DNA of 64,000 nt, from NCBI GenBank assembly GCA_951406725.2, contig OX597821.1, positions 80,042,001-80,106,000 of the forward strand, given 5' to 3'. The DNA comes from Octopus vulgaris (taxonomy: Eukaryota). Made by a program: the position numbers and the translations under genes. Of the stretch, positions 8,314 to 34,464 are shown one piece after another (positions within the stretch are counted from its first letter, which is position 1; every line of letters begins with the position of its first letter). The notes beneath the pieces were generated by a model. The model was not told the DNA's origin. It made no database searches and was given only the letters and a program-made list of their open reading frames with translations.

Positions 8314-8627
8314 TCACAATCTAAATGTTGCCGCAGTATATTTGGTCTTCCGGTTCTTTCGGAACGTCTTCCGTTTCCGGTCACGCCCCCTTATAACTTT
8401 ATTTTTATTTCCCTTGTTCTTGCGCTTTTTCTTACGACCTTTTTGTGATTTCCTGGTGCCGTTCTTCTTTCGATCTTTATTTTTCTTCTTCTTCTTCTTT
8501 CTCTTCTTTTTCCTTCTAGAAAGTCTATCAGGTCGTCTGGTTTTGTTGTTGTTCTTCCGTTTGCCGGACTCTTTCTGTGAGACTCTGCCCTGACTTGGTT
8601 TCTGAACGTCTGCGTCAGGTTCCACTC
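8314..8627 (-). CDS. Candidate terminal coding exon encoding a Lys/Arg-rich tail, possibly the C-terminus of the netrin
   Basis: Non-repetitive open frame VEPDADVQKPSQGRVSQKESGKRKNNNKTRRPDRLSRRKKKRKKKKKKNKDRKK...KYTAATFRL* with mixed codons. An in-frame TGA just upstream (8629-8631) implies an exon boundary. Phase-1 acceptors tgtattttctgAG|GA (weak gAG) or gacgcAG|AC match the phase-1 end of the LE3 exon. The link to netrin is inferred. Confidence 0.55.
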
Positions 8628-9164
8628 CTCAGAAAATACACACAATCATTCCAATTAAAAATAAATCAATCTTAGAGCAGAGATGTGTAGATTTTACGAG
8701 AAAAATATCACAGAGGCCTGTTGCCAGTCGCATGCACCTCTCTATGTTGGCTTTGCTTCCGAAGTGTGCCAATTTGTACCAAGAGATTAAAGACAAGTGA
8801 GAAACCAAGGAAAAGGTGAGAGAAGACAATCAGAGTGTGTGAGATGAGGAGAAGTCATAAAGGGAGACATATAGAAACAAATATAGGTAAGTAGAGGGCT
8901 TGATCAATAGACAGGTGACGAGTAGGTAAAAACTACATACATACAAATAAATTCGTTCGGAGTTAATGAAATACTCTGTCTCAACTTAGCCTTTCTCGCC
9001 AAAAGATCAATCGGACTTTTGTCGCCTGAGTGATTGCTTGTGTCGAGATACTCTCAGTAGCGAAGGCGTGAATCATTAACTTCAAGCAAACAAATAAAGT
9101 CTACTACAAATATCAAGTAATTTTCCTCACGTTTGACTGCCCAATTTAGTATGTGCGTGAGTAA

Positions 9165-9253
<89 letters not shown>

Positions 9254-9477
9254 ACGATCTATCTGTCTATCTGTTTGTCTGTCTATCCAACTAAAATATA
9301 CTACGTTATATTATTTTGAAATGATTTGCTTTTAAAAATAAACCTTAGAATTAACTGCAATGTAAGAGGAATACCGCAGTGTTTTTTTTATATTATTTCC
9401 CATATATATATAAATATATATTTATATAAATATATATATACATGAAACGTGCGTGTACATCCACACACACGTACGTA

Positions 9478-10435
9478 CGACGGTTGTATCGAAAGTAATG
9501 TAAAAGCGGGCATAACTTTTATATTAACCGACGCGTGTCGTTCAAAGTGCAAGTGCTGCTAGTTTAACCCTTCCTTTTCATTACTCCTCCTTTGTTCTTC
9601 ATTGCAGCAAAATGTGTTTCAAACAAAAGCAACATGTCGACATTGAGTTCTTGACGAAAGAGAGCTATAGACTGTTCGACTGTCGAACTTCGACATCCAC
9701 AGAAAGCGACAAGCTGTTTATGGTGATAACACCATTAATAAAAGTTATGTACACAAACGGATGAAGAAGCTTACAGAAGTGTAGGAAGCAGGGGGAGGAG
9801 AAGTATTGAAAACAAGCCACGAAGTGGGGAGACCATTAACTGCGACCACTAATGCTAACCGCCAGGATTGATTATCGCAGACAGACGAAGCATAACCCAT
9901 GAGCTTACTACGGGACTGGATTGTAGTCACAGTGCCTTACAGAAGAGAGTGGAAGACTGGGAATCAGAGAGTGTTCTAAAATACTTCGGCAGTTGACAGC
10001 TGATTTAAAAGAAAGAAGCGTTTCAGTCTACTTTAATCTGCTGGAAGCGTTTGAAGCTAATGAAGACTATGGCATCCAATAAGATAATTGGCAAATTGCG
10101 CAGTTCAATGGTCACCTGTCTAACATACTGATTAGATCTGCTGCCCACCTGTTCATTCCAAGGACAGTCTTCTGGGACAATGATTTGATGACACAGACAG
10201 GTGAAAGTGGATTTGAAGAAATGGGTACAACAGTGCATACCTGAAGATTTTCAAAGTGTTATCGAAATTTGATTTCAATGATGGCTCGAATACATTGTTT
10301 GCGATGGAGACTGTGTTGAGTAGTGCCTTTCTTTAGAGGAAGAGTTACTCGGCCGATACGCATAGTTTGAAACACCCGTGTCAGTAAAAGTAAAAAGGTA
10401 TACCAACTTTTGCATTACTTTCAGTAGAACCCTTA
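9478..10435 (+). mobile_element. Degenerate mariner (Tc1/mariner) DNA transposon
   Basis: TIRs cgacggttgtatcgaaagtaatgtaaaag / cttttgcattactttcagtagaaccctta, with TA on the left. Broken transposase remnants: ...IEFLTKE, DIHRKRQAVYGDNTINKSYV, ENKPRSGRP. Confidence 0.8.
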
Positions 10436-11153
10436 TGTGCGAGTGTATATGTATATAGTGGCAAAGTGTGAAGTGAAGGAAAGAAGTTAGAGATAATCTT
10501 TTCTACTACAGGCACAAGGCCTGAAATTTTACGGGGGGAGAGCTCGTCGATTATATCGACCCCAGTACTCAAATGGTACTTATTTCATCGCAAAGTCGAC
10601 CCCTGCGGAATTTGAACTCAGAACGTAAAGACAGACGAAATGATGCTAAGCAGTTTGCCCGGCATGCTAACCATTCCGCCGGCTGGCCTCCTTCAAGAAA
10701 GTAACAGATAATAAGGCGATAGCTCATTTCTGTTTTACGTATCTATGTATTTAAATTAAAAGACAATGTGTGAGTATATATGTGAGCACACACGCACACG
10801 CACACACAAACACAGAGTTTTATAGAGTATACACACACATAGATCCACACAACTCACAAACGCACACATACGCATACGCATAGAATGCTAGAATGTCAGA
10901 TGCAATGGTAAATAAATGTGTTTTTCGAATCATTGTCGTTTCATGTTTATATATTTATTTATTCACTTATCTATTTATTTTTTTAAAATTTATTTTCGTT
11001 TTTTAGATAGAGAAAATAAAGAAGAAAAAAAATTGTATGCAAACGATTTAAGAAGAAAGAAAAAAAGTAAACAATACAGTAAGTTCCTCGTTATTTTGTT
11101 TAAACACAACAATTCGTTGATTTACTAAAATCAGCTCCTGCCAAATTTACAGT

Positions 11154-11226
<73 letters not shown>

Positions 11227-11584
11227 CATATATATATATATGTACATACATACATACACACATACACGCATGCGACTGTGTGTGATGTTGCTATTATTTT
11301 CGGTTCAACCGATTCTTCTTTTTTGTTTATATATCCTTACATACATATGCATACATCCATACTTATATACTTGTGTGTGTGTGTGTGTGTATGTGTTTTT
11401 ACGTAATTTTTTTTCACCTAACGTCTTAATTTGCCAAAATAACAGTTATAGCACGAATTAGACTTAAGCTAAAGTAGCGGGAGCAACAGTAGCGGTTAAG
11501 GTAGAAATGATCGTGACAGTAGTGGTGACAGTAGAAGTAGTAGTAATAGTAGTAGTAGCAGCAGCAGCAGCAGCAGCAGCAGCG

Positions 11585-11644
<60 letters not shown>

Positions 11645-12638
11645 AAGACGATTCTATTAACAGTGGCAATCGTTCTCAATTTGGGTACATGGCCAGATGC
11701 TTTTGAGAATGGATTATTCAATTAAATCGACTTCACTACTTAAGTGGTACTTTATTTATCATCCCCGGAAGAACGAACGTCAAAAACTCATAACCAACAA
11801 GCGAAATGCACTTTGTCCGACGCTGTGAAAGATTTTGCCAACCATTATTTGTACCATTGGCTCATAGCATTAAATATTTAGTTAAGATATCAGTCGGTTT
11901 CATCTGTCAGAGTTTATTACTGGTATGTATTGGTTCAAGCCACTATGTGCTCAATCGATCTGCTAGAAACAACAATGGTATATCCTTATAAACGGTCAAA
12001 CTGATAAATTCATCTTGTTTAAGTCATTGGACTGTAACCATGGAGAAATATCGTTCTGAAAGGTTTATTCGAAAAAATCGACCCAGTTATTTTGGTTGCC
12101 CTGTTAATATTAATACTTATTCTATCGATACATGTTACCGAACAGCTAGGTTACTGGAGCGTAAATAAACCAATACCGGTTGTTAAGCAGTGTAGGATGA
12201 CAAGTACAAACACACACACATTCACTATGGAATCCTATACAGCTTCTGTCTACCAAATTCACTAACAGGGAAATTGCCGATCCGCGGTTACTGAAGAAGA
12301 CGCTTGTCGAAGGCGCTGCGCAGTGGAACTAAACCGGAAACCATGTGGTTGTAAAGCGAGCTTTGAAATTAAGGTGAAATGTTCATAGTTTGAATGGCTT
12401 TGATTTAAGATCGTAGCGATGAGGACTGATCTGTATATTAACAATAAAAACAACGAAGAAGATAAAGGCAGACAATGCAAGCAGTGGGAACACAGTGTTA
12501 TTGACGAGTATTCCATGGGTTTACTTGTTCAAATTCCACTGAGAGACACTTTAAGTAAGATATCCTAGCGTCAGTCTGCTAGTTGTGTGTATGTGTGTTT
12601 GTGTACGACACACATATACACATGCCTCTCTCTGTGGT

Positions 12639-12695
<57 letters not shown>

Positions 12696-13099
12696 AGTGG
12701 TAAGAAGCTTGCTTTTCAACCACATGATTCGGGGTTCAGTCCCGCTACTATAGCCTCAGGCCGACCAAAGCCTTGTGAGTGGATTTAGTAGACGGAAACT
12801 GAAAGAAACCCGTCGTTTGTGCGTGTGTGTGTGTTTATCCCCCACCACTGCTTGATAACTGGTGTAGGTGTGTTTATGTCCCATAACATAGCAGTTTGGC
12901 AAAAGTAACTGACAGAATAAGTACTAGGCTTTAAAAAATATGTCCTGGGGTAGATTTGTTCCTCTAAAAGCCTTCAAGTAAAAAGTAAAAGATAAAAGGT
13001 AAACGCATTACGCATGCGCACAGCACTCCCTTAACCCCGTCCCCTACTTATGATCGGTTTAAACCTTAATATCCCCATCCTCAGCAGAAACCCGAGAGA

Positions 13100-13495
13100 G
13101 ATCTCCCACTTGGACTCTCACCAAGAGACTCAGATGAATGCTGAACGGTGCCTACATCAGAATGCTACGTGCAGTGCTCAACATCTCTTGGAGAGAGCAC
13201 CCAACAAAACAGCGGTTATATGGGAAGGTAGCAACTATGTATAATCAACCACCCCAAGAGCCGAGATTGAGGTTTGCTGGCCACTGCTGGAGAAGTAAAG
13301 AAGAACTGGTGAGTGGTGTGTTGCTGTGGATCCCAAATCATGGCACCATAGCAGCCGGAAGACCACGGAAGACGTATATACAACAACTTGCAAATGCTGG
13401 ATGCCAAGTTGAAAACCTAAAAACACTAATGAGCGGGAGAGATTGAGAGAGGTTGCCAGGCTGGTCCGGGCAATCAACCTGACTAAATGATGCCT
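13100..13495 (+). mobile_element. RTE-clade LINE 3' fragment
   Basis: TWTLTKR...LNGAYIRMLRAVLNISWREHPTKQRLYG...RLRFAGHCWRSKEE...GRPRKTYIQQL is the typical RTE ORF C-terminus. A-rich tail follows. Confidence 0.85.
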
Positions 13496-14147
13496 CGATA
13501 AAAAGAAAAAAAAAACGAAAAAAAAAAAACCCAGTAAAAAATTATAAAATGAAAAGTTTTGTCGGTTGAATCGATCTTGTATTTTATTGTCATGTAATTC
13601 TTATCAACCTCGAAAGGATGAAATGGCAAAGCCAGCCTCGGTACGATTTGAACTCAGACTGTAAACCCGAAGAAGTATCGCTAAGCATTTGGTCCGCGGT
13701 GGTGACGATTTGGCCAGCTCCCCACCTTAAGCAATAATTCTTTCTAGGCCTGAAATTTTGGGTGGAATGGTATAGTCGATTACACGAACCCTAGTGTTAA
13801 ACTGATATTTATTTAATCGACCCTGAAAGGATGAAAAGCACAGTCAACATCGGCGAAATTAGAACTCAGAAAGTAAAGCCGGAAGAAATGCCTCTAACCA
13901 TTTTGTTCGGCGTGCTAACGACTCTAGCAGCTCACCGCCTTTTGTTTTTGATTGAGGAGCAAAAAGCAATCAGTTTTTGAAGAGAGAGCATAATCATTTA
14001 CATCAACTAAGAGTAAATGGCAAAAACTGACCACGGTGAGATTTCAACTCAGTAAGTGGAGAGTGGCACAACCCCCCCCCCCCCAAAAAAAAAAAACGAG
14101 GCTCTAACGATTCTGATTATCCAATAACAACGAACTTTAGGTTTGTT

Positions 14148-14410
14148 AAAATATGTTTGTGATATATCTTAAATTCCAAATTCCCGGCAGTTGCCGAGGA
14201 GGAAAACATTTTCTCTTATGGTAAAAAGTGTGAAGACACCATATCTGCGCTATCAGATTCTCGGGCATGCATTTCTTGCTCTGGTGCTTGGGAATACGAC
14301 AGTAGGAAAATATGGTGCTTTTTACACTTTTCACCATGGGAGAGAATTTTCTCTCCACAGAAACTGCAGTGAATTTGCCTTTGGAAGTTTAAATATGTCG
14401 CAAACATTTT
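14148..14410. repeat. Imperfect inverted repeat (MITE/foldback-like); a third partial arm lies near 14585-14630
   Basis: aaaatatgtttgtgatat...ttttctcttatggtaaaaagtgtgaagacaccatat pairs with atatggtgctttttacacttttcaccatgggagagaa...atatgtcgcaaacatttt. Confidence 0.65.
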
Positions 14411-15254
14411 CGTGTCCGATCAAGATGTTGAATAACACAACTCAGTCACTGATGTTGAATGTTTTTTTTTAGTTAAGATACGGTTCTGGATCTGCGCAGA
14501 GTTATCGCGCTTTAGCGTTTTCCATTGAAGAAAGCTAATGAGCCTGAAACGGCCGTTTGGGAATCCGACAGGGGGTAACACTGGGCAGATATGGTGTTTT
14601 TACACCTTTTTCCAGGAAAGAGTTTTTTCCAACACATTTTAACTAACATAAATTCCGTTTATTCGGAATCACTGCTTGGCACTGATGTTGCTACAATAAT
14701 AACAGTATTTTAGAAAAAAACAATGAGAATAATAATTATGGTGGTAAGAAGGAATACAGAAATGGTATTCATGATGATGATATGGAGAAGGACGAGTATG
14801 AGAAAAAGGGGAGGTGGAGGAATACGGAAATGGCATTCACGACGACGACGACGACGATGATGATGATAATGATGATGGTGATGAAAATGATGATGATGAT
14901 GATGATGCAGGTAGTAAGAATAATAATGATGATGATCATGATGATAATGATGGTCGGGATAATGATGAGGATGATGATGAGGTTATGATGCTGGTGTTGA
15001 AAAACAAGTCGGCAAAAGTAGATGAAAGAAATGGCGAAGAGCCTCTCTCTCTCATCCCCTGTCGTTCCCTATCCTCTTCATGAAGGTCACGGGATCTCTT
15101 ACAGTGCAACATAATACAGTTTTTGTCTAGTGTCAGTTTAAAATAATAACACTATGTGTGTGTGTGTGTGTGTGTGTATACGATTGTACGTGTGTAAGCA
15201 TGAATGTATGTATATGTGTGTGTGTATGCATGTATGTATGTATATATGCATGTG

Positions 15255-15295
<41 letters not shown>

Positions 15296-15466
15296 ATGCA
15301 GTCGCGCACACACACGTACATACACAAATCTACATAAAAGATGTCAGCAATATTCAGAAAACATAAGCAATTAAGAGTGCTCACTGCGTATGATCGAAGA
15401 GAGAGGGAGAGGTGCAGAGAGGGAGAGAGGAAGAGAGAGAGAGAGAGCAAGAGAAGAGACGGCGCT

Positions 15467-15501
<35 letters not shown>

Positions 15502-15624
15502 GCAGAGTCTGACAAACAGCCACGTATCTAGACTAGCACACAAACGCGCAGATGGGTACTAAGACAGATTGACAGACAGACGGACAGACAGGGAAGCAGA
15601 TTGGAACGAATAGATTCGAAGAGT

Positions 15625-15655
<31 letters not shown>

Positions 15656-16739
15656 ACACACACACACACACACATACACACACACACACACACACAAAGT
15701 AATAGACAATCAAGTGGAAATATATATATATGTATGCATACACACAGACAGATATTTTGAAAGCTGACATCTTTCTGACGAGTGTTCATGTATATATATA
15801 TATATATAAGCAGATAGATATAGAAGTAACTAAAGTGGAAAAAATATAGCAGCAACCGAAATAAGTGGTAAAATGCTTTGTTTTATAGGTCGGAGATGGC
15901 GAATGTGGCGGTTGAACAAAATGGTGATGGGAAGCATAGTGGAGGCGAGGAAGTTCAGTTCCAGGTTTCACAGTGAAGACATTTCAGCTATCTTCATTTG
16001 AAGCCAAATCAACAAATAGGTATGTCCGCCAAATCCGACATCAACGTGATTGCGTGTGAGTGTGCGTGAGTTTGTGAGCGAGTGGTGCATGTGTGTATCT
16101 ATGTATGTGTATGTGTGTATGCTTGCGTGCACACACACACACACACATATAAAAGAAGAGCAATAAGAATTGGAAGAACAGAACTACAAACAAAAACACG
16201 AATTGGTTGAAGTGTGTTAGAAAGAAATTTCAGTTGAGGTTTTCAACGAAGATGTCAGCTGTTTACCGTATGTTTTGTTGTTACTGCAGCTGCTGTTGGC
16301 GATGGCGGTGTTGGTGTTAGTGTTGTTGTTTTTCGTGGTGGTGGTGGTGGTGGTGGTGGTAGCAGTAGTGGCAGTGGTGATAGCAAATATGATTACAATG
16401 ATGACGATGATGATGGTGGTGATGCCGAAAATAATGATGATTATGATAGAAATTATGACATTGATGATAGCAATGAAAAAGATGGCGATGATGAAGATGA
16501 TGACGACGATGCTGATTGATAACTATGAACATAGCAAGCCAGTCGTCTCGAAAATAAATGTCATAATTGACATGAGCTTACCTACTGCTACAACTTATAT
16601 GTAAAAGTACTAAGCGATTGCAACCGAAAGACACCTATAAGAATGGTATTGGAAGTATTCGTGACTTTCTTGTTCTCCCGGCAGAATGTGTTGGTCATTA
16701 GATAAATGCTTAACGGTACCAAAGAAATGTCTTCTAATG

Positions 16740-17563
16740 CAGTGCTATTCAAAGTGGTGGTCCGCGAGCCATCAGCTGCCGGTACGCGGCGAGCTTCCAG
16801 AAAAGAAAGAAACATTTTAAAATGCTTATGTAATATTGTATTATTTGTTTACAAAATAAATATAGGATAAAAAATTGCCAACTTTTATTGTATTCATTAT
16901 ATATTGGGTCGTCCGGAAAGTTCGTGCCGATTTTTAAAGGAAAGCAAAAGGTCAATAGATACTTGCCATTACATTTTTAATCAACCAAATATGAACCATT
17001 TTGTTGCATCTTTCATCTTTCCTTTAACTTGGAAATACCCTCTTCCCAGAATTGAAGTGGTTTCATGGCAAAGAATTTATCAAGGTATCTTTTTATGTCA
17101 TCCAAGGAATTGAAATTTTTACCATTAAGACTATTCTGTAGAGACCTGAATCAGTGGAAATCTGAAGGAGCAATATCTGGTGAATATGGAGGGAGGGGTA
17201 ACACATCCCAGCCGAGCTGCAGCAATTTTTGTCTGGTTCCCAAAGCATCAAGTGCCGAAAATGAACTTTCTTATCTTCCATTTTAAAGGGTTACAGAATT
17301 AACACAGGAACATAAACCTTCTCCCACGAAAAGATAGCTTAAACTGTGCTCTAAATGGGGTTGTAGTCAAATCCTATTTTATGAACTCAACCATGTTCTA
17401 AAATAAGTCGAAAGGTAAGCTACTATAAATCGGCAGGAACTTTCCGGACAACCAAATATATTGTTTCCGGTATAAATTAATGTTAATAAGAAATATTACC
17501 GGTCCCAGGCACATTGGGAAAAAAACTGTTGGTACGCCACATCAAATAGTTTGAGAATCACTG
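16740..17563. mobile_element. hAT-like non-autonomous element
   Basis: Termini CAGTGCTATTCAAAGT and (reverse complement) CAGTGATTCTCAAACT, typical of hAT Charlie/Buster MITEs. The TSD is not clean. Confidence 0.65.
16904..17456 (-). mobile_element. Internally deleted mariner element nested in a hAT-like MITE
   Basis: TIRs ttgggtcgtccggaaagttcgtgccgattt / aaatcggcaggaactttccggacaaccaaa, with TA on both sides. Minus strand encodes PPYSPDIAPSDFH*FRSLQNSLNGKNFNSLDDIKRYLDKFF (mariner YSPDLAPSD motif). Confidence 0.9.
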
Positions 17564-18482
17564 TCTATGTTCTGAATTCAAATCGCGTTAAAGCTACCTT
17601 CATCTATCCAGTGTTGAAAAAATAAGTAGCTGTAATATACTGGAATGGATGTAATTGATCGTTCGTTACTTCTAAATTCCTAACATTCTGATGGACTCTC
17701 CCGTCGAAGACAACGTATGAGCGGTCAGCTTTTGCCGAACGACTTACACAAATGATTTGTTTATTGTGATCAAATGTATGCATCTCACAACAGCTCACAC
17801 TCTTCATCAAATCGACGTTGCCTGAACAGGTGCACTGTGTCGAAGTGATTGTAGTGCAACGTAAGATAAAGTGCTTTGCTCAAGAACACAACGCACTGCT
17901 GGGTCTAGGAATTGAAACCACAATCTCGCGATCGTGAGTGCAACACTCTAATCACTAGGCCATGCGTTCTAGGATTGTACATGTTTTAAATTTCATTATT
18001 GTTCGCAAAACGACGAAGCCATTTTCAAAGTTCTCGTTCAGTATCTGAGAGATATTGACTGATGGGGGTCTACTGAACCGCTGCTGTTAAGTGAGGGCTA
18101 TCGGCCAAGTCTTATTACAGAGATAATCCCCTCTGTATTTCATTTGGCTGGGTGCTAACGATTCTGCCAAAGGCACAATAACAATTTTGCGAGGAAGATC
18201 TTATTAGAGTAAACTTATACCAGCACTTGTATGTTATTTTATTTTATCGACTCCAGAGAGATGAAAGGCAAAGCTGACTTCAGCTGGAATTGAACTCAGA
18301 ACAGAACGCAAATATAGGTCATAATAAATTATATTTCTTTCAAATCGTCTTAGATGACGCTAGAATAAAATGCTATCTTTTTTACCTAACCTTACCAGCG
18401 TATTTCTGATATTAATTGGAAATCTTTACAACCAAGATCGAATCTAAACCCGGTCACTAATTGTTAATTTTTTATTCCGAAA

Positions 18483-18483
<1 letters not shown>

Positions 18484-18560
<77 letters not shown>

Positions 18561-18561
18561 A

Positions 18562-18627
<66 letters not shown>

Positions 18628-18672
18628 TTACTACTACCACTGCTGCTGTTGCTGCTACTGCTGCTGCTGCTG

Positions 18673-18727
<55 letters not shown>

Positions 18728-18742
18728 AGCTGCTGCTGCTGT
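18484..18742. repeat. Compound (CTA)n/(CTG)n microsatellite
   Basis: Alternating tac/tgc blocks; source of the poly-Y/C and poly-L ORFs. Confidence 0.95.
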
Positions 18743-18827
18743 CGTTCTACGTTAATCAGTACAATTTTGCTTGGAAATAGGATATTAACTCTTTATTAGG
18801 ATTTAAAATAGCGAGAGGGAACGAGTA

Positions 18828-18868
<41 letters not shown>

Positions 18869-19084
18869 ATGAGACAGTTAAATAGATAGATAGAGAGAGA
18901 GAGAGGGGGGAGATAGAGAAAGGTAGATAGAAAAAGAATAGATTGAGAGATTGGTGAATTTTGTTAGAAATATAGAAACAGACTGAAGACAGATTGTCAG
19001 AAATGGAGAGATAAATATTAAGGGAAAGAAAAAAGTGACAGAAAGAGGGAGACAAGATAGAGAAAGAGAAAGTGAAGAGAGAAC

Positions 19085-19115
<31 letters not shown>

Positions 19116-19593
19116 GTGGATTGTGCATCAAATGGTACAAATGGATGCGAGAATGCAAAGTTTCGGTTCAAGAGAGGGCGACTACAGCCATAAAATAATA
19201 TTCTTCAGGAAACAAAGGAAATGAAAAAGAAAAAAACAACAACAATTTTCTTCTCTGTCTGTGTCATGGCGGAAAAGCGTCCTGAAAGCTTGAAGGAAAG
19301 CACATTCACAAAGCAAAAATGATAATGGTAATATTGGTGATAATAATAACAATAATAACAAAAAAAAAATACAATGAGGAAAAATATGGCTGGCAAAAAT
19401 GAAAATTAAGAAATGTTATAAAGCCGTAAAGCTCAGAGACAATCAGTTTTAAAAGAAATAACAAAAAGAAAGCACACACACATATCCACAATGATTATTG
19501 GAGGCAACAATTACACACCAGTTACATGCTTTTCTTAATAATGCGAGCAAACCAAAGAATAAAGTAAGCAAGTGCAAGGCTAAACTGTGAAAT

Positions 19594-19663
<70 letters not shown>

Positions 19664-19680
19664 TTGATTTTTCTTTGTAA

Positions 19681-19889: not shown

Positions 19890-19916
19890 AAAAAAATAAC
19901 ACACATATATCTATAA

Positions 19917-19990
<74 letters not shown>

Positions 19991-20059
19991 GGAGTCAACA
20001 CATAAATGTGAAACAAGGTGGAAAAAAGAGTACTCAAATACCAGTGGTAGAGTAATATG

Positions 20060-20225: not shown

Positions 20226-20256
<31 letters not shown>

Positions 20257-21605: not shown

Positions 21606-24469
21606 ATATGTACCCCATTAAATATTTTCCATTTTCGTTTATAATCTTTTTACCCCTTGTTTTCATTTTTGTTAAGCTCCTCTGTTCGTGTGTGCGTTGA
21701 AAGATCCCTTAGAGTACGCCATTAGAGTATAAGTTACTGTAGTTTTTTTTTAATGTTTTAACATTTTATTAATTTGTTTTCTTCAACATATTCTTTCTTT
21801 GACATACATTTAGAACAAAATGCGTGATAAAAAAAAACACACACAGCAACTATGACAATAACATTCCCAACAACAATACAATTCTCCCCACCGTCACCAC
21901 CAACGCCAACACCTACACAACAACAATGACGACGACGACGACGACAACGACGACGACAACGACCACGATGATTATGAAAATAGTTTGAATGCAAAAAAGT
22001 AAAAAGTGACTAATAATAAATACTGCATTCCGGACTAGGATTTCAGTACAGTTACCACAAACACTCACTGAAGTATCAATAGCAATTTGCTGAGCAAAAA
22101 CAAAAGGATATTTAAAAAATGACAAAACATACATTGTTCATAATCATTCAAAGACCGAAGTAGATTAGAAGATATCGGCATAGACCAAGGAAGACGGTAC
22201 ACGAACGATGATAATCGGAGATGACTGGTGTAGTTTACGCAACATATTGTCGAACCAGCCGACATCATGCATAAGAGAGACATAGATCCATGTTTTCGTA
22301 AGTCAAGAGAAATTCAAAAACGCATGCAGTAAAACTATCTAATATGATTTATTAAACTATATCCACAAATTGTGATATTCTAGAACATATCTCTGTTTGT
22401 GTATAAGTTGACAAGGATATACGGTGCACGCAGTGATAAATCCATCTCGCTATTCATTTATCTGTTTATATTTGCAGTTATTAGGAGTGATCAATTTATC
22501 TTGTCATATATGACGTGAAGCAACACGATGATATATCGACTCTGTTTTATAAATTTGTTCTCTCTCGCCATATTTGCTCAAGAGTAACACAGCAGTAGGT
22601 TCTTCTACCTTGGTTTACTTACCGTTTCATAACATGTCCTCTTGATTTACTTTAAGATGCTATATGCTGCTGCTGCTGCTGCTACTGTTGCCGTTGGTAT
22701 TATTGTTGTTGCTGATGAATGATCAGGATGATGATCGGCATTGAATATTCAGTAATATCAACATGTTACAGTGTATATGACATCGAGGGAGGTGGTATAT
22801 TTTATTTACGTTAAATGCTGTGATATATCTAATTTATGACTGAATTGTGTATATTAAAAATATACCTTCGATGTCAAACTGGACTATGGTAAAGAGGAAT
22901 TTGTAAGAGGAGCTAGTAAGTATAGAAAAGGCATGCAGAAAGTGGAAAGGGGACGAATTGGTGGGCGCTAGCCCGGACAACTGATTCGTAAGGGAGATAA
23001 TTGAAGTGATGATGGCGGTGATGATGATGACAGTAGTGGTAGTGGTAGTGTAAGTGAATGAACGCAGCCAATAAAGAATAAGAACATGAAGCTGGAAAAA
23101 TGTGGTAGGAAGTGTAGAGTGTACGATATATTGTTCTAAAGTCTTTAATGGTCGTGTTCAACAAGAGTAAGTCGACTCAAATCTGTCCCTTCGTAAGTTA
23201 GATATAAATATTTTGTCGACAGTAATCTTTGAGAGTAAGATAATAAAACTCTCTATACATCAATACTGTTCATACATTTATTCAATCTATTGCTAGACAA
23301 AAAAAAAATGACTTAGATCATTGATATCTTTAAAACAATGCAAAACTGGTTTAAAATTTACAATGACTTAGAAAAATTCCCAAAGCTTACGATCGCCGAT
23401 ATTTATTATTACATTATAATGACGTTGGGGTATCTTTATCGTTTTTGTTTTGTTTTAGTTAGTTTTATTAGTATTAATAATGTTCATAGCATTTTTGAAT
23501 CCATTGATAGTGAAAGATAAGGTTAAGTAGATAAAGTTAGTACTAAGAATGCTTAGGTATTGAGAAGGGGCGGGAAATATTGACAACAAGGGTGATAGAG
23601 AGGCATGCAATTTCTAGAGATGAAAGACTAGAAAAAACATTTAGTAAATATTCTGATGTGGTGAATTTCAGTGGGTTTGGTTCTGAGCTAGCAATTTCAA
23701 AAACGTAGAAAGCGCTGTTGCAGAGGAAGAGAAACGATAGGCCAAGCGATTGTGTGAAAGTTGGCGTGTAAGATGGCTGTCTTTTATTATTCATCGCATA
23801 TTAAGGAACCAGTTGCAATATTTTCGATATTCAGACTGAAGACCTTCCATTTATGGATTTATAAGTTCTCACTTTCTTTCTTCCGTCTTACTCTTTCTCT
23901 TCACTTTTTCACAATTAAGGCTGTGTGTTAATTCGAAGCCGATCATACACTCAGTTGCTATTCGGAATCTCTTACTGTATGCATACGTCAAGCAATATAA
24001 GATATTTGCTTTATGTATTGAGTACTCATACGTTTATGCTTACACACACACGTATCATAGCAATCTAAGTGTTATATTTAATGTGTATAAACTAATGACA
24101 GCCAAGTTATTGCAGTTTTCGTTCGAGATAAAAAAAAATATCTTATAGATGCGCTGTGCGTGCAATGCAATATATATTAGAAGGAGACGAATAATCGTCC
24201 TGGCAGGGGCTAGCGAGAATGCCAGATGCTGCCCTTGTTGGGCTTTGTCAGTGATGTACATGCAGCCAGCAACATGCTCAGGCCAGATCTGCCACTTCTG
24301 ATACAGAAAACAGGGAGAGTATTTTTCACTGCTTCCTTTATTCCCCACTCCACTATACACGATCTCACATTCTCACATACGCGCTTTCCTAAGACCCACC
24401 TAACAATTGTATGCACACCCAACCTCACTAACAAATGTCACCATACTTACACATACATACACAGCTCTA

Positions 24470-24508
<39 letters not shown>

Positions 24509-27220
24509 ATTCTCTTTATGCTTGCATCAAACAGAGATACCTACTGATATATGGATCTATACATCCACCTTTTAATCTGTCCTAACTCCCTCATAGAACA
24601 GATTTGCCTATGATTTTTAACCCTTCCCCTTTCTCCTGTGTCCACGCACTCACAGTTTCTCTTTTTCACTCTTCCTATCTGTTTTTCTATGCCTTTTTTT
24701 TAGACGAAGAACTAACATCCAAAACGTCAAGACATTTTTTCTCCGTCTTAATCGTGAAACTAACATCATATTTATTAAATTTTGTTCTTCTTACGTTCTT
24801 TTCGATATCTGTTGTCCTTGCATCCAACGCCTGCACACACATGTACACACACACACACGGGGAATACAGCTAGAAATCAAGTGGTGACCTCTCCCGCCAA
24901 ATTTCGAAGGAAGGTTGTATGTTACACTGTATATGAATAACTAATTATCCTTATTTTTGTGAGCATTTCTGATACTAAATTCCGTCCCCCACCACAATTT
25001 TAATACAGGATTCGCTCCACAAACAGAACAATGAATTTTACATGCACTTAAAAATTGATTATGGTAAAGAGGAAGGAATTCCACCCTTGTCATTTCCTCA
25101 CCTCCCCAGACTGGTGGGATCTTCTGGAACAACTGATGCGAGGGCTACAGGCAAAGCATTTGCAAGTAGGGAAATCCAAAGGAACGTTGTTTTAGAATGG
25201 GCAGGCTGGCTGCAGTGGTTTATGTGGGAGCTGGGGTAGCGGTAACAATTCAACGGAGACTTGGAAGAGAAACGATCATGGAGGAAGAGCCTGGGCCGAT
25301 GAGGCACGAAACCTACGTCTGAAATTGTTATAGAAAAGGCAAAGAGGGGAAGGAATACGTGTGTGGACCAACGACTGATTAGTGCTAGTGAGAAACTTTT
25401 TGCCGCCATGTGAGCTTTTTATAAATGCGTTCTCGAATGCTTGCGTGCATAACAGTAGCACCGTCTCAAATGTAGGAACAGCAATCTGTTGTGTAACTTT
25501 GAGTTTAGGCTGTGTGTGCAGAGGCAGAGAGACACGTACGTAAGAGCATAGTTAAAATCAACACCTATCCGCTGGAAGCACCAAGGGATCTGAGGGGGGA
25601 GGATCATTTTTCATTTTATAAATGTGCGGTGGGTATTCAAAATAAAACAATGATCAGACGACATGAAAGGTGCAGAGACGGTGATGGTTTGTTAAAGATA
25701 TTATTTGAAAGTGAAAAAGAGGTAAAGAATTGCATGGGATGGTCGTGTGTCAATCAGCGATGAAATTCGGAACTGAAACTGGAAGTAGAAAGTTGAAGAC
25801 TGTGAAAGATAGCATTTCTTCACCCGCTGTATCAGTATGGGATCAGTGACAGAACCACTGTTATAAAATGCAACCAAACCTTCCTCAAGTTTTGTTTCAC
25901 TGGATCGAGGGTGGAAGGGCTGAGAGCGGGTGTTGCGAGAAGGCAAAAGCAGATTTTTGGCCTTCCTGCTTTTAACTGAGCGGAATATCAAGGGCGTGAA
26001 AGTAGGTGGGAGATAGAGCTGCACTAGCGGTCGGCTAGTTCACGCTTTCAGCTGAATCGACCGGGGCAAAGTGAAGTGAAGTACCTTGCCTAAGGACACC
26101 TTGCTTAAGTACGCTGCTCGGTCCAAGAACGAAACCACAGCGTTGGTGCATTTCCCGGATGGTGGTGTGTTGTGTCCACCATATTAAACACAACCACATG
26201 CACACCTCCATCCACTAGATTATCGGTAGTTGCTATACACCACTTGTTACTGTGCATTTCATTGAATTATTGTAACCTTCGGATGATGTCACCCACTGTC
26301 CACGTAAGCAGGCCATATGTGTGTGTGTATTTACATATCCACTCACGTTTCATGTATAATTATACGCATTTGTGTTTATATGAGTGTTCCCCTTGATTAA
26401 GGCTGAAGTATGATGTTACACCGAGTTAAAGGGGCAATCTATTGACCCATGAAAGGTTATAAATAAAGTTTCTGTCTGACTGGTCACGTAACAATATTTC
26501 GTGATAAAGTAATGTGTATCATTTGACACTTAATTTTCATTATCCCTCTCTAACTCTCTATCACTTCCTCTTTTTCTCACTGTATATACATACGTGCGCG
26601 CGCACATACAGCCAGACACACACGTATGTATACATATATATATTCGCATATACATAAAAATGGCGGTCGATTGAACGAATTGTCAGAGCGTTGAAAAATT
26701 GGATTTGGTTTCTTTGCGTAATGAGTTCTAATATCGCCTTGGTGAGCTTCGCTATTTACCTTCTGGAGTCTAACAAACAACGTAGGAACACCGATTCTTT
26801 GCTGTTTTTTTATTCTTTCATGTGTTACGCTGTGGGATCAAACCTTAACTTTCAGTTGCGACTGCATTCAAGTTGAATGCTTATATATTTTTTTAATTGG
26901 AGATTTTCCCATTCCCTTATTTATTCTTATGTTTACTTTCAAACAATCCCTTTTCTACATCCTTTAACGTTTACAAGTTTAAAGTCCAGTTTTGGCCTCG
27001 TCATCGGAATGACATGAGAGACTTTGAATGAAGCGACGCTGATTTTATTAGTCATAACACTATTCCTACAATCCTTTATTGCCTATTGCAAAACACATCA
27101 GTAATGCGTTACATCTACCAACACATTCTGACTTTTACACCAAAAAGATCCTGTAGACACCCTGTTATCCCAAACTGAATATAAAAATAACTATTAAAGA
27201 AAATTTGAAAATGATCATTT

Positions 27221-27437
27221 ATTCCTTTACTTGTTTCAGTCATTTGACTGCGGCCATGCTGGAGCACCGCCTTTAGTCGAGCAAATCGACCCCAGGACTT
27301 ATTCTTTATAAGCCTAGTACTTATTCTATCGGTCTCTTTTTGCCGAACTGCTAAGTTACGGGGACGGAAACACACCAGCATCGGTTGTCAAGCGATGTTG
27401 GCGGGACAGACACAGACACACAAACATACACACACAC

Positions 27438-27503
<66 letters not shown>

Positions 27504-27662
27504 ACATATATACGACGGGTTTCTTTCTCTTTCCGTCTACCAAATCCACTCACAAGGCTTTGGTCGGCCCGAGGCTATAGCAGAGGACACTTGCCCAAGG
27601 TGCCATGCAGTGGGACTGAACCCGGAACCATTTGGTTGGTAAGCAAGCTACTTACCACACCT
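27221..27662 (-). mobile_element. Family B SINE, full length
   Basis: Near-identical to the 3712 and 45152 copies, with an expanded internal (TA)n. Confidence 0.85.
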
Positions 27663-28257
27663 CCACACAATGTATATATGTATATGTTTGAGAGAGTGTT
27701 GTGTGTATGTTTTAATGGCGACAATGTAAGATAAGGGCCAATACGAAGAAACCACACGAAAATTCTTTGGTCGTAAAAACCGTTTCCTCTAAACTGTACA
27801 AAGCTTTGAGAGATATGAAGTGAATTACTTTCTCATTTTAACGGTGAAACTCTAAGGTAGATAAAGCTATAAATGATAGCGGGTAGAATGATGAGTTCAA
27901 AATACCCATTGGATAGAAAGAAAGTCAAAGGTTTTTGATGGGACACAAACCCACGTTTTGTATAAACATAACCGACGCTCTAACTTTATAACAGAGCACT
28001 ACCAAATTTCCTCTATCTCCCTTAGAAGTTTAGTTCTTACCAGCGAGAACTCTCAGATGTTTATGCTGTAAAACTTCGCGAGGTATATGAAGTAAACATT
28101 GCTTTTTATAACGCTTCGACTATTTTTCCATCCCAAAGTATTTTAACCTCGTATTCTACATGTTATTATTTATAGCTTTGTATACTTCGAGTTCCACCAT
28201 TAAAATCATTATTGCTTTATTATTATTAAATTTGAATATAGTCGTGTCTTCAATATC

Positions 28258-28327
<70 letters not shown>

Positions 28328-28559
28328 ATGACGTATCAAATGTCCTTCCCGTGGCATAGACTTATAGGGTCGGTTTTCGGATCTGCGGACGTTTCATCGC
28401 AACTTCTATCGCAGCATAAATCATTTTTGCCATCAAAGTGGACTGGAGCAACGTGGAATGAAGTGTTTTGTTCAAGAACCCACAGCACTGTGTGGCCCAG
28501 GAATCGGAACCACAACCTTACGACCATGAATGCAATACAGTAATCACCAAGACACGCGC

Positions 28560-28593
<34 letters not shown>

Positions 28594-29832
28594 TAGTTAT
28601 CACACTATATACCCTGTGGGTATACACACACACACACACATATTAGTTATCACACTATATGCCATGTGGGTATACACACACACACACGTGTGCGTGTGTA
28701 TATATCCACAGGGTTAAAAAACAAAGGCATAAAGAGGTCATGGGAAGCCCTTCCTTTGACTGACTCTAAGAAGGACAAAAGATGAGCTACAGACGTGGTG
28801 ATTCATGTGAGGAGGCGATGTAGAATATCTTTTTATCTTAGTCCATCAAAGTGCGAAGTACCCAATGCCAATACTGTCCAAGCCAGCACTGCTAATAAGC
28901 AGTAATGATTAATCGTTCATGGATACTTTTGCCTGCATTTATAAAATAATCAACTCAATTGCTGCTATTTATTAGACCAGTGTGAGATTTAAAATAATAT
29001 ATTCGTTCTTTTGCTCTGCAGCCATTCAGAGAAAGCGGAAGTTCGGTATTATCAAAGCCACCAGCTATCCCTATTTGTAAGTTACTTTGAAGTTCTCGCA
29101 TACGTTCACGCTCCTATATGTACACATCACATACACACTCACATTTACACTTTTGAATTTTCCAGCCACAACATTCACGTGCATATATCCACATATTTAC
29201 CTGTAGGCTATATTGTAATTAAATCCCACCTCGGTCTAGACGAGGAGTATTCCAGTGATTTAATCAACTGAACTACCTTTGCATTGTATAATCGTATAAA
29301 TGGCTGAGAATTTCACATAGCAATGTACCCTTAGTATAATCCTCAAACACAATCTACATCTACATAACACTGCGAGTTACGCAGCTGGACCTTTCAAGTA
29401 CATCTGCATCTTATTTACTGGGCTTTCCGCGCAGTTTTAACCAACCCAATTTCACTGATAAGCCTTAAAATATATCGTGGAATCTTCATGCCCAAAGTGC
29501 TGTGCAAACAGATCGATTTTACAATCTCATTTTGGGGTTTACGGAAATCATTTATTAATTTTTTAATCTTTTTCATGTTTCACTCACTGGACTGCGGCCA
29601 TACTGGACACTGCTTGAATAAATCGACGCCAATACTCAGTTGTTTTCTTATGTCCGATACTAGTCCTATCGGTAATTTTTATCGAAAATGTAAACAAACC
29701 TACACCGGTTGTGAAACTTTGTGAATGGCTGTGACAAACACAGACACAAAGCCTCCTCTCTACGACACTGACAGACAGGTAGACACACACACATACATAT
29801 ATATGTATGTGTATGTATATATATATATATAT

Positions 29833-30248
29833 ATGTTTTATGATCATTCAAAAGAAGGTAAGAAAACGGAGATTTATTATCTGCAAAAATCAAACATAAT
29901 CCCTTATAGCTCTTTCAATGAAGCCTAAAAGATTAAATAACAATTATTAAAATCATTATATTCGGCAAAATCTCTTCACCGTTAGGCTTATGTGTTGTAT
30001 TTTAGAATCATCTCGTCACAGTCTGCTGTGATGATTCTAAAATACAACACATGCTAAACTTAAAAGTATATCTTTTTTCTACCCCTCTCAAGAGATTTTG
30101 CCTAATATAATGATTTTAATATTGTTATTTAATATTCTATGCTTAATTAAAACAGCTGTGAGGGACTATGCTTGCTTTTTGCAGATAATAATTTTTTATT
30201 AAATTATATCTCCATTTTCTTACTTTCTTTTGAATGTTTATAAACCAT
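29833..30248. repeat. Large imperfect foldback element with perfect inner 23-bp arms
   Basis: Outer arms cattcaaaagaaggtaagaaaacggagat / atctccattttcttactttcttttgaatg and attaaaatcattatattcggcaaaatctctt / aagagattttgcctaatataatgattttaat. Inner arms atgtgttgtattttagaatcatc at 29990-30012 and 30030-30052. Confidence 0.8.
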
Positions 30249-31793
30249 GGTTTATATATAAACCTTTTGTTTTATGAATATTATTATTCATAAAAAATAT
30301 TAGGTATTGAACCAGTAATTCATTGGATGATACCACCATTTAGTGAGGCTAATTTAACCTCTAACTGAATATATATATATATATATATATATATACACGA
30401 CAGGTTTTCACACAGTTTCCGTCAACCAAATACACTCACAAAGTATTGGTCGTCCCAGGGATAAAAATAGAAGACACATGCCCAAGATGCCACGCAGTGT
30501 AACTGAATCCGAAGCCACATGGTTGCAAAGCGAGCTGCTTAACCGCGTAGTTCATACACACATGCAACTCATGTATTCACCCTCACATATATGCTAACAC
30601 GCTTACCTTCTTCATAAATTGCAATTACACCTCAAAACTAAGATCCGATATAAGATCGATTATAATGACGATGATACAGTGATGAGGAATTTGTTAGTTT
30701 ATAGAGAGCATCTCATTCTTACGCTTAATATAACGGAGATTGTGGACTGGGAGAGTCGGTAGAGCGTCGGACTAAAGTTTCGCTACATTTACCTGCGTTC
30801 ATATTTACGTTTCGAGTTCGAATCAGGTCGACGCTAGTTTGACCTTTCGCTATTTATAAAATAAATAATCTCATCAACTAATGAGATGGCAGTTCTCACT
30901 TCATTATCATACTTAATTACGTTTAATTTACTTAATAATGTTTTCAAATTATGGAATAACCAACAAATTTTGAGGCGTGTGGTTGAATCGATTGCATCGA
31001 ACCCAGTACTTCAGTGGCACTTATTTTATCGACACCCAAAGGTTGAAAGGCAAAGTGGTCTTCGGCATGAATTGAACTCAGAATGTAATGATTTGGAACT
31101 GAAATCGTATGACATTTTTTCTGATGCTGTCACAATCCTGCCAGTCCATTGCCCTTATTAACCATAATAATGATTGTGCTTACCTCAAATTTATGACCCC
31201 AAGGCAGAAATTTGAGGTAGGGTGTTTGTCGGTTAAACCAACCTCAGTAATTTATTTTATCGGCTCAAAGGGATGAAAGCAGTTGACTTGAGCGAAATTT
31301 CATGCCAGAACTTAAAGATTCGTATTAAACTGACTACTATCTGGCTGCTACTTTATTTACTGATACTTTATTTACTCTTGCGAGTTAATTTCATGAGCAT
31401 GATGTTCCGTTGATCAGATCAACTGCAACTGTCATAGTCGAAACTGACAAAGTGCCAGTTCGTTCACTTGTATAGGTTTGCAATTGTACTCTGAGAGAAC
31501 ATGTTAAATTATGCAAAACATTAGAGAAAGAAACCTAGCTGTTTCTTGCTATAAATACATCTTAAACAATGTTTTTTTAATGGATACTTAACATACTACT
31601 GTGGGTCCCCAATTTACTATTTTGCCTGTGTCGACCCCTGTGGTAAGTAGCTTGATTACCAACCACATGGTTCCGGGTTCAGTCCCACTACGTAGCACCT
31701 TGGGCTAGTGTCTTCTACTATAGCCTCAGGCCGACCAAAGCTTTGTGAGCAGATCTGGAAGACGGAAATTGAAAGAAACCCGTCGTATATATG

Positions 31794-31842
<49 letters not shown>

Positions 31843-31986
31843 CTGTGTGAGTGTGTGTGTGTATGTTTGTGTGTCTGTGTTTGCCTCCCCAACATCGCTA
31901 TGCCATAGAAACCGGGAAACCAGGCCCGTGAGCCTGGCTAAGCTTTAAAAAGGCGCATTTATTTATTTTTTTAAGTGTTATACTAT

Positions 31987-32027
<41 letters not shown>

Positions 32028-32029
32028 AT

Positions 32030-32557
32030 CCTTTCTACTATAAGCACAAGGCCTGAAATTTCGGGGGAGGGGATAAGTCGATTACATCGACTTCAGTGTT
32101 TCACTGGTACTTAATTTATCGACCCCGAAAGGATGAGAGGCAAATTCGACCTCAGTATAATTGGAACTCAGAACGTAAAGACAGACGAAATGCCGCTAAG
32201 CATTTTGTCCAGGGTACTAACGATTCTGCCAGCTCGCAGCCTTAATAAAAATGATAATAATAATAATAATATTTTAAAAAGGATTGACGTAACCCTTCAC
32301 AAACGTAAACAGTCAAGACGAAGAGCTCGATTCGATTGTGAGATGTTTTATTAGTTGAACGATATTTCAACAGTAAGTCTGTCTTTGTCAAGTTCAAAAT
32401 AAGAAGTGATAAAAATTCAAAATTACAGATAATTTTTGAATTTTTATCACTTCTTATTTTGAACTTGACAAAGACAGACATACTGTTGAAATATCGTTCA
32501 GCTAATAAAATACCTTACAATTGAATCACGCTCTTCATCTTGACTAATAATAATAAC

Positions 32558-32591
<34 letters not shown>

Positions 32592-33050
32592 GGAAGAAGA
32601 ATCCTCTCTACTAAAGGCACAAAGCCTGAAATTTGGTGGGGTGGGGACTAGTCGATTACATCGACCCCAGTGTTTCACTGGTTCTTAATTTATCAACCCC
32701 AAAAGGATGAAAAGCAAAATCAACCTCGGCAGAATTTGAACTCAGAACGTTGACACGGACGAAATGCCGCTAAGCATTTGTCCGGTGCGCTACCGATTCT
32801 GCTAGCTCGCCGCCATAAAAATAGTAATAATTCTTTCTAGAATAGGCGCAAGGCCTGAAATTGTGGGGGGAGGGGGCTAGTCAACTGCATCGACCCAAGT
32901 ACGTAACTGGTACTTATTTCATCGACCTCACCCAAAAGGATGAAAGGCAAAATTCGATCTCGGCAGAATTGGAGCTCAGAAGGTACGGAGCCGGAAGAAA
33001 TGCTGCTAAGCATATTGTCCGGCTCTGCTAATATGTCTGCCAGTTTCGAT
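32030..33050 (-). mobile_element. Cluster of three family A SINEs (~32030-32243, 32600-32815, 32833-33050)
   Basis: Repeated atcgaccccgaaaggatgaaaggcaaa..tcggcagaatttgaactcagaacg..gaaatgccgctaagca. Further copies near 1692, 10495, 13560-13940, 40160, 44175, 45600-46300 and 63270. Confidence 0.85.
32311..32545. repeat. Long inverted repeat (~115-bp arms) with degenerate Penelope-type hammerhead core
   Basis: agtcaagacgaagag...aaaaattcaaaa pairs with ttttgaatttttat...ctcttcatcttgact. Internal cttgacaaa-GACAG acata CTGTT-GAAA-tatcgttcag. Confidence 0.8.
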
Positions 33051-33698
33051 GCCTTGGCTAATAAATATAATAAAAGAGAAGAAATTGATATTATTGAATT
33101 GAATGAAATAAAGAAAGAGAGATGTGACAAACGAGAAAGGAATGGTGCAATATTAAAGTATATTTGATTTGGTGGTTGCGATTATTTTCGGGAGATGGAA
33201 GGGTTGGAGGTGCTAAGATGAAAAGATGGCTGCAGATATCAATGACGAAAGAACGAGACGCGATATTATGAAAGAGCAGCGGGAAAATGTGAGCTGGGCA
33301 ATAAAGAAAACAAATGAATGTATAAGAGGGAAATGTAGAAAAAGAGAGAAAGAGAGCAAGATTTAAACAGGTAAATTAGCAAGGTTACCAACGATCGGTT
33401 ATCAGGAATAAGTTAAAAGTTAAAATGCTGGAAAAACGAAGAATTAATCTTTTTTTAATGAAAGAGAGAGAAAGAAAGTAAAGAAATGAAAAATATAAAA
33501 AAATATATATAATATATACAAACACGAAAGACTGAAAGATAATATGTTAAAGAAAGAGGATGTAACAAGAAGCAAGCAAATTCAAGGTTTTATAGTAATC
33601 AGTAAAGAGAGAAAAGGTAGTTGAGAGATTAAAAAAAAAAAAAAGAAAGGAAGTTCTATTAGAATTTTGTTTTTTATCTTTCGTTTTTTTTTCCCTAC

Positions 33699-33778
33699 AT
33701 TTGATTTATGAACACAAACGAACAGAGCAATCCAAGCAGGAGGAAATAGAATTGACAACCCTGGATGATGTCTGTCTT
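33699..33778 (-). CDS. Possible small or alternative netrin exon after LE3
   Basis: Strong acceptor cttcatctctttcgctttacag| about 540 nt downstream of LE3. Open in phase 1 ([27 protein letters not shown]). The donor is uncertain (AAT|gtaggg) and I recognise no homology. Confidence 0.25.
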
Positions 33779-33918
33779 CTGTAAAGCGAAAGAGATGAAG
33801 CAGGTCAAGGAAAAGCAACAATATGCGTGTGTGTGTATGTATATATAAATATGTAAATATATAAATATATACATATATATATATATAAATATATAAATAT
33901 ATACATATATATATATAT

Positions 33919-34000
<82 letters not shown>

Positions 34001-34112
34001 TATACATATATATATACACATAATATAAATTATATACATATTATATATATAGTATAATATATATATTATATGTAATATATATTTATATATACATACATAA
34101 ATAATATATATA

Positions 34113-34147
<35 letters not shown>

Positions 34148-34314
34148 GCAAAGTATAATATACATATATAATATATACATAGACACTGATAAAACAAAAC
34201 GAAAAATCAAAAGCAAAAGTAAATAAATAAATAATGGGGTTGTTTGCATTGTTAAATGAAAAAAAAAAGGGTTTTCTCTCTCTCCGTCGAAGTATCCTGT
34301 GAAGAGTTACTTAC

Positions 34315-34464
34315 TGACACAGGGAGCAATGGTTGACTGGGTTTGTTCGTAGCCCTCAGCGCACCTGTTGCAGCTCAAGCCCGTCACACCCTCCTTACAA
34401 GTACATTGTCCTGTAGTTTGGTTACACGTCATTCGAACCGACCCCACGGGATGGCATTGGCAGC
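34315..34464 (-). CDS. netrin: Netrin (UNC-6/netrin-1 family) internal exon encoding laminin-EGF repeat 3 (domain V-3)
   Basis: Minus strand reads tttctcgtttcag|GC TGC CAA...TGT GTC A|gtaagt. 150 nt, phase 1-1. Translates [50 protein letters not shown], which matches netrin-1 V-3 as I recall it ([50 protein letters not shown]), including 8 Cys and the netrin-typical SxIAPC end. Absent from the ORF track. Confidence 0.95.

Follow-up and report, generated by a model that had tools for sequence, protein, structure and literature searches.

It has long been debated whether netrin works at short range, as a bound cue, or as a diffusible one, and what its C-terminal C345C domain adds. These questions have been approached mainly by engineered deletions. 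In the accessible portions of the published studies, C345C is described as netrin's main heparin-binding site, dispensable for DCC/UNC5 binding and for guidance (10.1101/2022.09.03.506478; PMC8390410; PMC10084454), and EGF2/LE2 as a second, independent heparin site (10.1101/2022.09.03.506478). For an unrelated ligand, PDGF-A, an alternatively spliced C-terminal exon rich in lysine and arginine (K/R) is reported to hold the protein on matrix heparan sulfate (PMC3072383). Here we analyzed a 64,000-nucleotide stretch of the Octopus vulgaris genome (G000:C8:80042001-80106000, hereafter the window), which contains part of a netrin gene. Our analysis revealed that the donor of the exon encoding the third laminin-type EGF repeat (LE3) is the branch point of two isoforms, one with the canonical C345C end and the other with a polybasic tail; we consider this two-isoform architecture practically certain. 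The tail is encoded by a genuine alternative last exon, which is conserved in cephalopods and restricted to them.

The original prediction had described an LE3 exon ending in phase 1 and, downstream of it, a phase-1-compatible basic exon ending in ATFRL, and had proposed that the netrin, as a gene or as an isoform, may have swapped its C345C (NTR) domain for this tail. Both exons were confirmed (Table 1). A gAG acceptor with a short pyrimidine tract before it opens the basic exon, whose first nucleotide is 8627; the exon reads VEPDADVQKPSQG...ATFRL up to a TGA at 8316-8314, and is spliced to LE3. A motif scan and tblastn also agreed with the prediction that no C345C exon is present downstream of LE3 in the window, nor was one found elsewhere within these 64 kb. 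The search of the flanking contig gave a result against loss at the level of the gene: three intact linker/C345C exons, free of stops, are located 112-130 kb past the window start on the same contig and strand. They were out of reach of the prediction, which was made on the window only. NTR exons spliced to LE3 were the first refuting observation named with the prediction, and they count against its gene version but not against its isoform version. The proposed swap therefore holds for the isoform, which is spliced and conserved in cephalopods, but not for the gene. A gene in which the C345C domain is gone and the tail stands in its place would agree with a window without a C345C exon, and with the full-length models of O. 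sinensis, O. vulgaris and Argonauta, which terminate in the tail. This explanation is refuted by the downstream linker and C345C exons, which are spliced to LE3 in runs X1 and X22, and by the full-length canonical records P0244, P0249 and P0250. Since these exons are intact and joined to LE3, C345C was not lost by the gene, and since LE3 is spliced both to the basic exon and to the linker/C345C exons, the locus holds a single netrin gene whose last exons are alternatives.

Splice junctions were read from the assembled contigs of seven of 24 candidate runs, six of which were chosen as carriers of the basic exon. None of the candidate runs is registered as RNA, and their RNA nature is a guess; it is the spliced joins that carry the evidence for splicing. 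LE3 was joined to 8627 in all four runs examined at the basic exon (X1, X3, X5 and X14), with depths of spliced vs intron-containing contigs of 148.7 vs 3, 286.5 vs 8.1, 123.6 vs 3.4 and 134.4 vs 0, respectively. The contigs of all four passed the stop unbroken, with no joint, from 8627 to 8122-8146, where a masked simple repeat follows. When the LE3 donor was examined in four runs, the basic join was detected in three (X1, X10 and X11) and the canonical join to the linker in two (X1 and X22). Run X1 holds both joins, with a contig depth of 148.7 for the basic and 30 for the canonical form, while X10 and X11 contain the basic join only and X22 the canonical join only (depth 7.9). No words of the basic exon were detected in X22, which belongs to the same study as X14, a run that has the basic form. 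Overall, the basic join was present in six of the seven runs, from six studies, always exactly at 8627; the candidate acceptors 8624 and 8609, which had been named beside it in the prediction, were not seen in use in the contigs. Upstream, LE3 was joined to the LE2 exon in 4/4 runs. There are hints that the basic form is dominant and that the choice is regulated; they are only hints because the run choice was biased to the basic exon, contigs lose rare forms, depth is a crude measure, and X22 is shallow. We rejected the possibility that the basic exon also serves as an internal cassette, via a phase-1 donor-like site at 8435 (minus strand), as neither a joint nor a loose end was present there in 4/4 runs. 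This donor-like site, if used, would give an in-frame basic insert together with C345C.

The tail consists of 104 residues, including 31 Lys, 20 Arg, 7 acidic residues and no Cys (net charge +44, about 49% K/R). The canonical C-terminus has 140 residues, six Cys and a net charge of +30, so that net charge per residue is 0.42 for the tail vs 0.21 for the C345C end. Five cephalopod tails range from 98 to 105 residues, with 49-53 K/R and net charges of +42 to +48. Approximately the first ten residues after LE3 are non-basic, the mean normalised hydropathy of the tail is 0.23, and its C-terminal end is not hydrophobic. The C345C profile PF01759 is absent from the tail-form records P0245, P0124 and P0001. 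Comparison of the tail with the C345C part of the same gene gave z = 0, and the possibility that the tail is a frameshifted or diverged C345C copy was rejected on this score and on the best frame, in which 48 of 74 codons are incompatible. The basic exon is single-copy, with one full-length genomic match, and its central ~50 nt resemble genomic repeats elsewhere (21 partial matches). The surrounding 404 kb contain 1,265 stop-free frames with a length of 80 aa or more; four of them, the tail frame and three poly-Lys runs, reached at least 32 K/R per 80 residues. Because K/R-rich frames also arise locally by chance, the open reading frame alone is not decisive; the basic exon is considered real based on its splice junctions and cross-species conservation.

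Both forms are present among the database predictions for O. bimaculoides (XP_014780157.1, isoform X2 with the tail, and XP_014780148.1, isoform X1 with C345C), and tail-form records also exist for O. sinensis, O. vulgaris and Argonauta; the tail isoform is thus already an automatic database prediction. Orthologous tails were identified in P0122, P0242, P0123, P0124 and P0125. A second pair comes from a sister lineage, with P0124/P0252 carrying the tail and P0249/P0250 carrying C345C. P0124 and P0249 are identical over 471 residues and diverge at the junction residue, and the O. bimaculoides pair P0122/P0244 is likewise identical up to this residue. In the phylogenetic analysis, which had no laminin outgroup, cephalopod netrins constitute a clade (100/100) within a clade (96/93) of mollusc netrins and one further record. 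P0124/P0249 group with P0125 as the sister of Octopus and Argonauta (99/98 and 100/100 support), and we infer that the sister-lineage records are from squids or cuttlefish. The isoform pair has accordingly been conserved since octopods split from this lineage.

Between Octopus and P0124, 54 of 94 aligned tail residues are identical (57%), as are 82/138 residues of the linker and C345C (59%) and 331/400 of the core, at a core distance between octopods and the sister lineage of ~0.46 substitutions per site. The tail alignment score was reached by none of 2,000 global and none of 2,000 local shuffles. Identity was kept at 23 of 52 non-K/R positions, and 38 of 42 K/R positions are still basic; indels in the tail are in frame and the terminal motif is retained. 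This conservation bears on the explanation that the exon is a by-product of premature termination in the 146-kb intron, derived from an AAG-type repeat and with no selected function, for which the repeat-like centre of the exon, the chance poly-Lys frames in the surrounding DNA and the short pyrimidine tract would speak. The open frame, the length, the order of non-basic residues and the stop position were nevertheless kept across the core distance given above, the tail is as conserved in identity as the C345C part, and the spliced contigs are far deeper than those containing the intron at the acceptor. A by-product is therefore highly unlikely.

To define the distribution of the tail, 78 lophotrochozoan records were examined (taking in 15/24 Mytilus and 1/2 Aplysia members), of which 14 without an LE3 end were dropped and 64 were scored. 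In the comparison with cephalopods and other molluscs that the prediction had called for, the polybasic tail, conserved in cephalopods, is absent from all 64 scored records, none of which is from a cephalopod. C345C is kept in 63 of them, and the exception, Tegillarca, ends in 25 non-polybasic residues. A tail query against 1.84 billion representatives returned only the cephalopod netrin P0123 and P0407, an unrelated repeat protein that was discarded as low-complexity. Neither Nautilus nor Vampyroteuthis was among the named matches. No description of a cephalopod netrin tail isoform was found in the literature by title and start of abstract, a coverage that leaves most subscription journals and supplements outside; a SPLASH preprint deals, in its accessible part, with the netrin receptor DCC and not with netrin.

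Alternative splicing at the same position was observed in other lophotrochozoans. In Haliotis, Patella, Mytilus, scallops, Biomphalaria, Lingula and Lineus, isoform pairs occur in which one member has an in-frame insert of 13-43 residues directly after LE3 and the other lacks it (P0325-P0392 and representatives). Some of these inserts are basic, C345C is kept, and the intron position is equivalent to that of window 8628-34314. Across the lophotrochozoans, the post-LE3 intron is a hot spot of splicing. That the cephalopod last exon was derived from such a cassette is speculation; the octopus tail and the cassettes share their position, and no similarity was apparent by eye, in an unscored comparison.

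The original prediction had proposed a role of the tail in heparan-sulfate or membrane retention, which is plausible. In our reading the tail is probably, though by no means assuredly, a heparan-sulfate or cell-surface retention device that, like long PDGF-A, keeps the cue near the producing cells. The proximal acceptor, 25.7 kb from LE3, would compete with the distal one ~146 kb away, and its choice would close the reading frame and probably the transcript also, with the outcome varying between samples. The tail isoform would be secreted and would keep receptor binding via LN-LE1-3; DCC/UNC5 binding and axon guidance are expected of it from the shared core and from published deletion studies. 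The unfolded tail would grip polyanions more avidly than C345C, while the folded-domain contacts of C345C would be lost.

Several points weigh against retention by a disordered tether. C345C is already basic (net +27 to +30), and LE2 is reported to bind heparin by itself (10.1101/2022.09.03.506478), so the tail need not bring stronger retention. Disorder of the tail is likely from its composition; the charge-hydropathy rule labels C345C disordered as well as the tail and is therefore non-discriminating. A first AlphaFold run (six sequences, mean pLDDT 28.9) was uninformative, and a second was confident for LN only. LE2-3 and the tail both scored low in the second run, so AlphaFold gives nothing firm on tail disorder. 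From the ESM Atlas, only laminin-EGF clusters below 0.9 were returned. As to the predominance of the tail form, the bias of six of the seven runs to the basic exon, contig depth as a poor measure of expression and the shallowness of X22 (7.9) have to be counted as well. Finally, each tail offers proteases 27-30 dibasic sites as well as 3-7 RxxR motifs, so it may be cleaved off.

These sites are the basis of the main alternative, in which the tail is cleavable or dispensable: convertases would cut the dibasic sites and generate a C345C-less netrin more diffusible than the canonical form. Netrin without its C-terminal domain is reported to be more soluble and still receptor-binding (10.1101/2022.09.03.506478; PMC8390410; PMC6408995, in their accessible parts). 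Insect models that lose C345C by frameshift end in unrelated and far less basic tails (~22% K/R), which suggests that C345C loss may be the purpose in itself. However, a strict R-x-K/R-R site is present in none of the five tails tested, and the residues that follow LE3 directly are non-basic. Furthermore, release would need one site near LE3, yet ~100 residues are conserved, including non-basic positions and the end motif. We consider cleavage unlikely, but the most serious competitor of retention.

The composition of the tail is typical of nuclear/nucleolar or nucleic-acid-binding signals, and the tail could thus serve intracellular targeting or nucleic-acid binding, after uptake or in a non-secreted form. 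A nucleolar netrin-1 isoform is described in human cancer cells (PMC6408995), but according to the accessible part of that source it is an N-terminal truncation and not a C-terminal swap. In addition, the tail records are full length, with cysteine-rich extracellular domains and a hydrophobic, signal-like N-terminal stretch, which in P0242 covers residues 49-63, soon after a downstream Met, the start codon not being fixed. We regard an intracellular role as very unlikely, and retention at the cell surface as the preferred reading.

The netrin exons are arranged in order on the minus strand, every junction being in phase 1 with GT/AG ends (Table 1). The coding region (C8:80286300-79912123) covers ~374 kb, with introns of ~149, 60, 146, 3.4 and 14.5 kb. 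The intron between LE3 and the basic exon is at the same time the initial stretch of the ~145.9-kb intron that reaches the canonical linker exon at C8:79930441. The sole N run in 404 kb is within intron 1, and the sequence from LE3 to the C345C exons is free of assembly gaps. The LN domain is matched by PF00055 (E 1e-69 at C8:80285348-80286040; E 1e-71 in protein P0245), the three LE repeats correspond to three PF00053 stretches with mapped exons, and PF01759 matches the canonical records P0244 (E 3e-24) and P0249 (E 7e-27). The LE3 exon is 100% identical to P0244/P0245, and the C8 exons match parts of the O. vulgaris proteins P0245 and P0243 at 100% identity. The contigs continue past the candidate poly(A) signals at 8272 and 8215; the hexamer scan identified more candidates at 7831 and beyond.

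Table 1. Positions of the netrin exons and introns, in window or contig C8 coordinates
Feature	Position	Strand	Details
LN+LE1 exon	ends C8:80285179	minus	profile match and translation
LE2 exon	C8:80136614-80136426	minus	
LE3 exon (netrin exon 3, third laminin-type EGF repeat)	window 34315..34464	minus	150 nt, both ends in phase 1, GTAAGT donor
Intron from LE3 to alternative last exon	window 8628..34314	minus	25,687 nt, GT...AG, junction in contigs
Alternative last exon, coding part	window 8314..8627	minus	junction Arg, 103 residues and stop
Alternative last exon, 3' untranslated part	window 8122..8313 (minimum extent)	minus	unbroken contigs
Linker exon	C8:79930441-79930412	minus	30 nt
72-nt exon	C8:79927057-79926986	minus	reads DSYCRKC...KKFCKRDY
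Last C345C exon	C8:79912442-79912123	minus	PF01759 E 1e-16 (C8:79912150-79912443)

Among 12 PF00055 matches, one netrin-type LN+LE1 exon was identified, on C8, together with one LE3 exon and one C345C set; a second netrin paralogue as the owner of the C345C exons was rejected on this basis. Two of the 12 matches were translated, one being netrin and the other what we take to be a laminin beta chain. Another NTR-domain exon (L002:1138-1809; C2:98039006-98039287; E 2.6e-6) belongs to a separate gene. The O. vulgaris and O. sinensis records also include separate C345C-only 'netrin-1-like' models (P0243 and P0246; C8:79935820-79912123) with different first exons, which are probably the result of the gene being split at the 146-kb intron. 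The annotation can be corrected in this respect, as the records of both species divide one gene into a tail model and a C345C-only model. Elsewhere in the window, the frames at 13138-13443 and 46612-47715 (plus strand) gave no Pfam match at E 0.01 and presumably represent remnants of non-LTR retrotransposons; a Pfam scan of nine other window frames revealed no family.

With this gene, one animal naturally produces two ligands that share an identical receptor-binding core and differ strongly in their C-termini. The two isoforms are ready reagents, and the exon is separately deletable in a genetically tractable cephalopod. A broader scenario, which we offer only tentatively, is that coleoids possess a tissue-regulated last-exon switch through which most netrin would carry a lineage-specific polycationic tether setting its range, with insects having arrived at C345C-less forms independently by frameshift. 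If this is true, C345C toggling would be a repeated and overlooked protostome means of setting netrin as bound or soluble. The significance is limited in that the isoform itself was already predicted automatically and its function is inferred.

Compared with netrin-1/UNC-6, the octopus gene is of the same type, with LN and three LE repeats, a core that groups with mollusc netrins, and a C345C isoform. The second isoform differs in that the linker and C345C are swapped for a cysteine-free 104-residue tail from a dedicated last exon. Judged by domain content, the gene is an ordinary netrin-1/UNC-6 member and the tail isoform, being without C345C, classifies as non-canonical. The long isoform of PDGF-A and the long forms of VEGF-A/PlGF likewise carry an alternatively spliced K/R-rich C-terminus on a secreted ligand (PMC3072383, in its accessible part). 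The PDGF-A ligand is unrelated, its motif covers 18 residues in contrast to ~100 in netrin, and for netrin retention is proposed by analogy. Furthermore, the PDGF-A switch is between a basic end and none, whereas the netrin switch is between an extremely basic tail and a folded basic domain. Among vertebrates, NTN5 isoform 2, NTN4 isoform 2 and the GPI-anchored netrin-G retain the LN/LE core but have lost the C-terminus or carry another one in its place; the NTR-less truncations are expected to be more soluble, while netrin-G has its GPI anchor, and the accessible parts of these sources mention no conserved polybasic replacement (PMC6408995, PMC10084454). Netrin-G has a hydrophobic C-terminal GPI signal, which the octopus tail, with the low hydropathy given above, lacks.

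The insect 'X2' models (Teleopsis, Atheta, Aricia and others), from several orders, are also C345C-less, with a moderately basic end after LE3. Their linker is retained and their C345C exons are translated in a shifted frame, whereas the octopus tail is a separate exon ~120 kb upstream of the linker exon. The insect frameshift pairs P0260/P0393 (Teleopsis), P0261/P0394 (Atheta) and P0406/P0324 (Aricia) had no incompatible codons among 93, 76 and 85, respectively. Because the octopus tail fails this codon test, the C345C-less isoforms of insects and octopus are independent; similarity between the octopus tail and the insect ends is at most marginal (z -0.4 to 2.5). Together with the further models P0280, P0290, P0292 and P0399-P0404, these C345C-less forms (~22% K/R) recur in flies, mosquitoes, a beetle, a lacewing and butterflies. 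On their sequences, the insect gene models look like a convergent switch, with the same domain removed from the same type of ligand by frameshift in insects and by a dedicated last exon in cephalopods.

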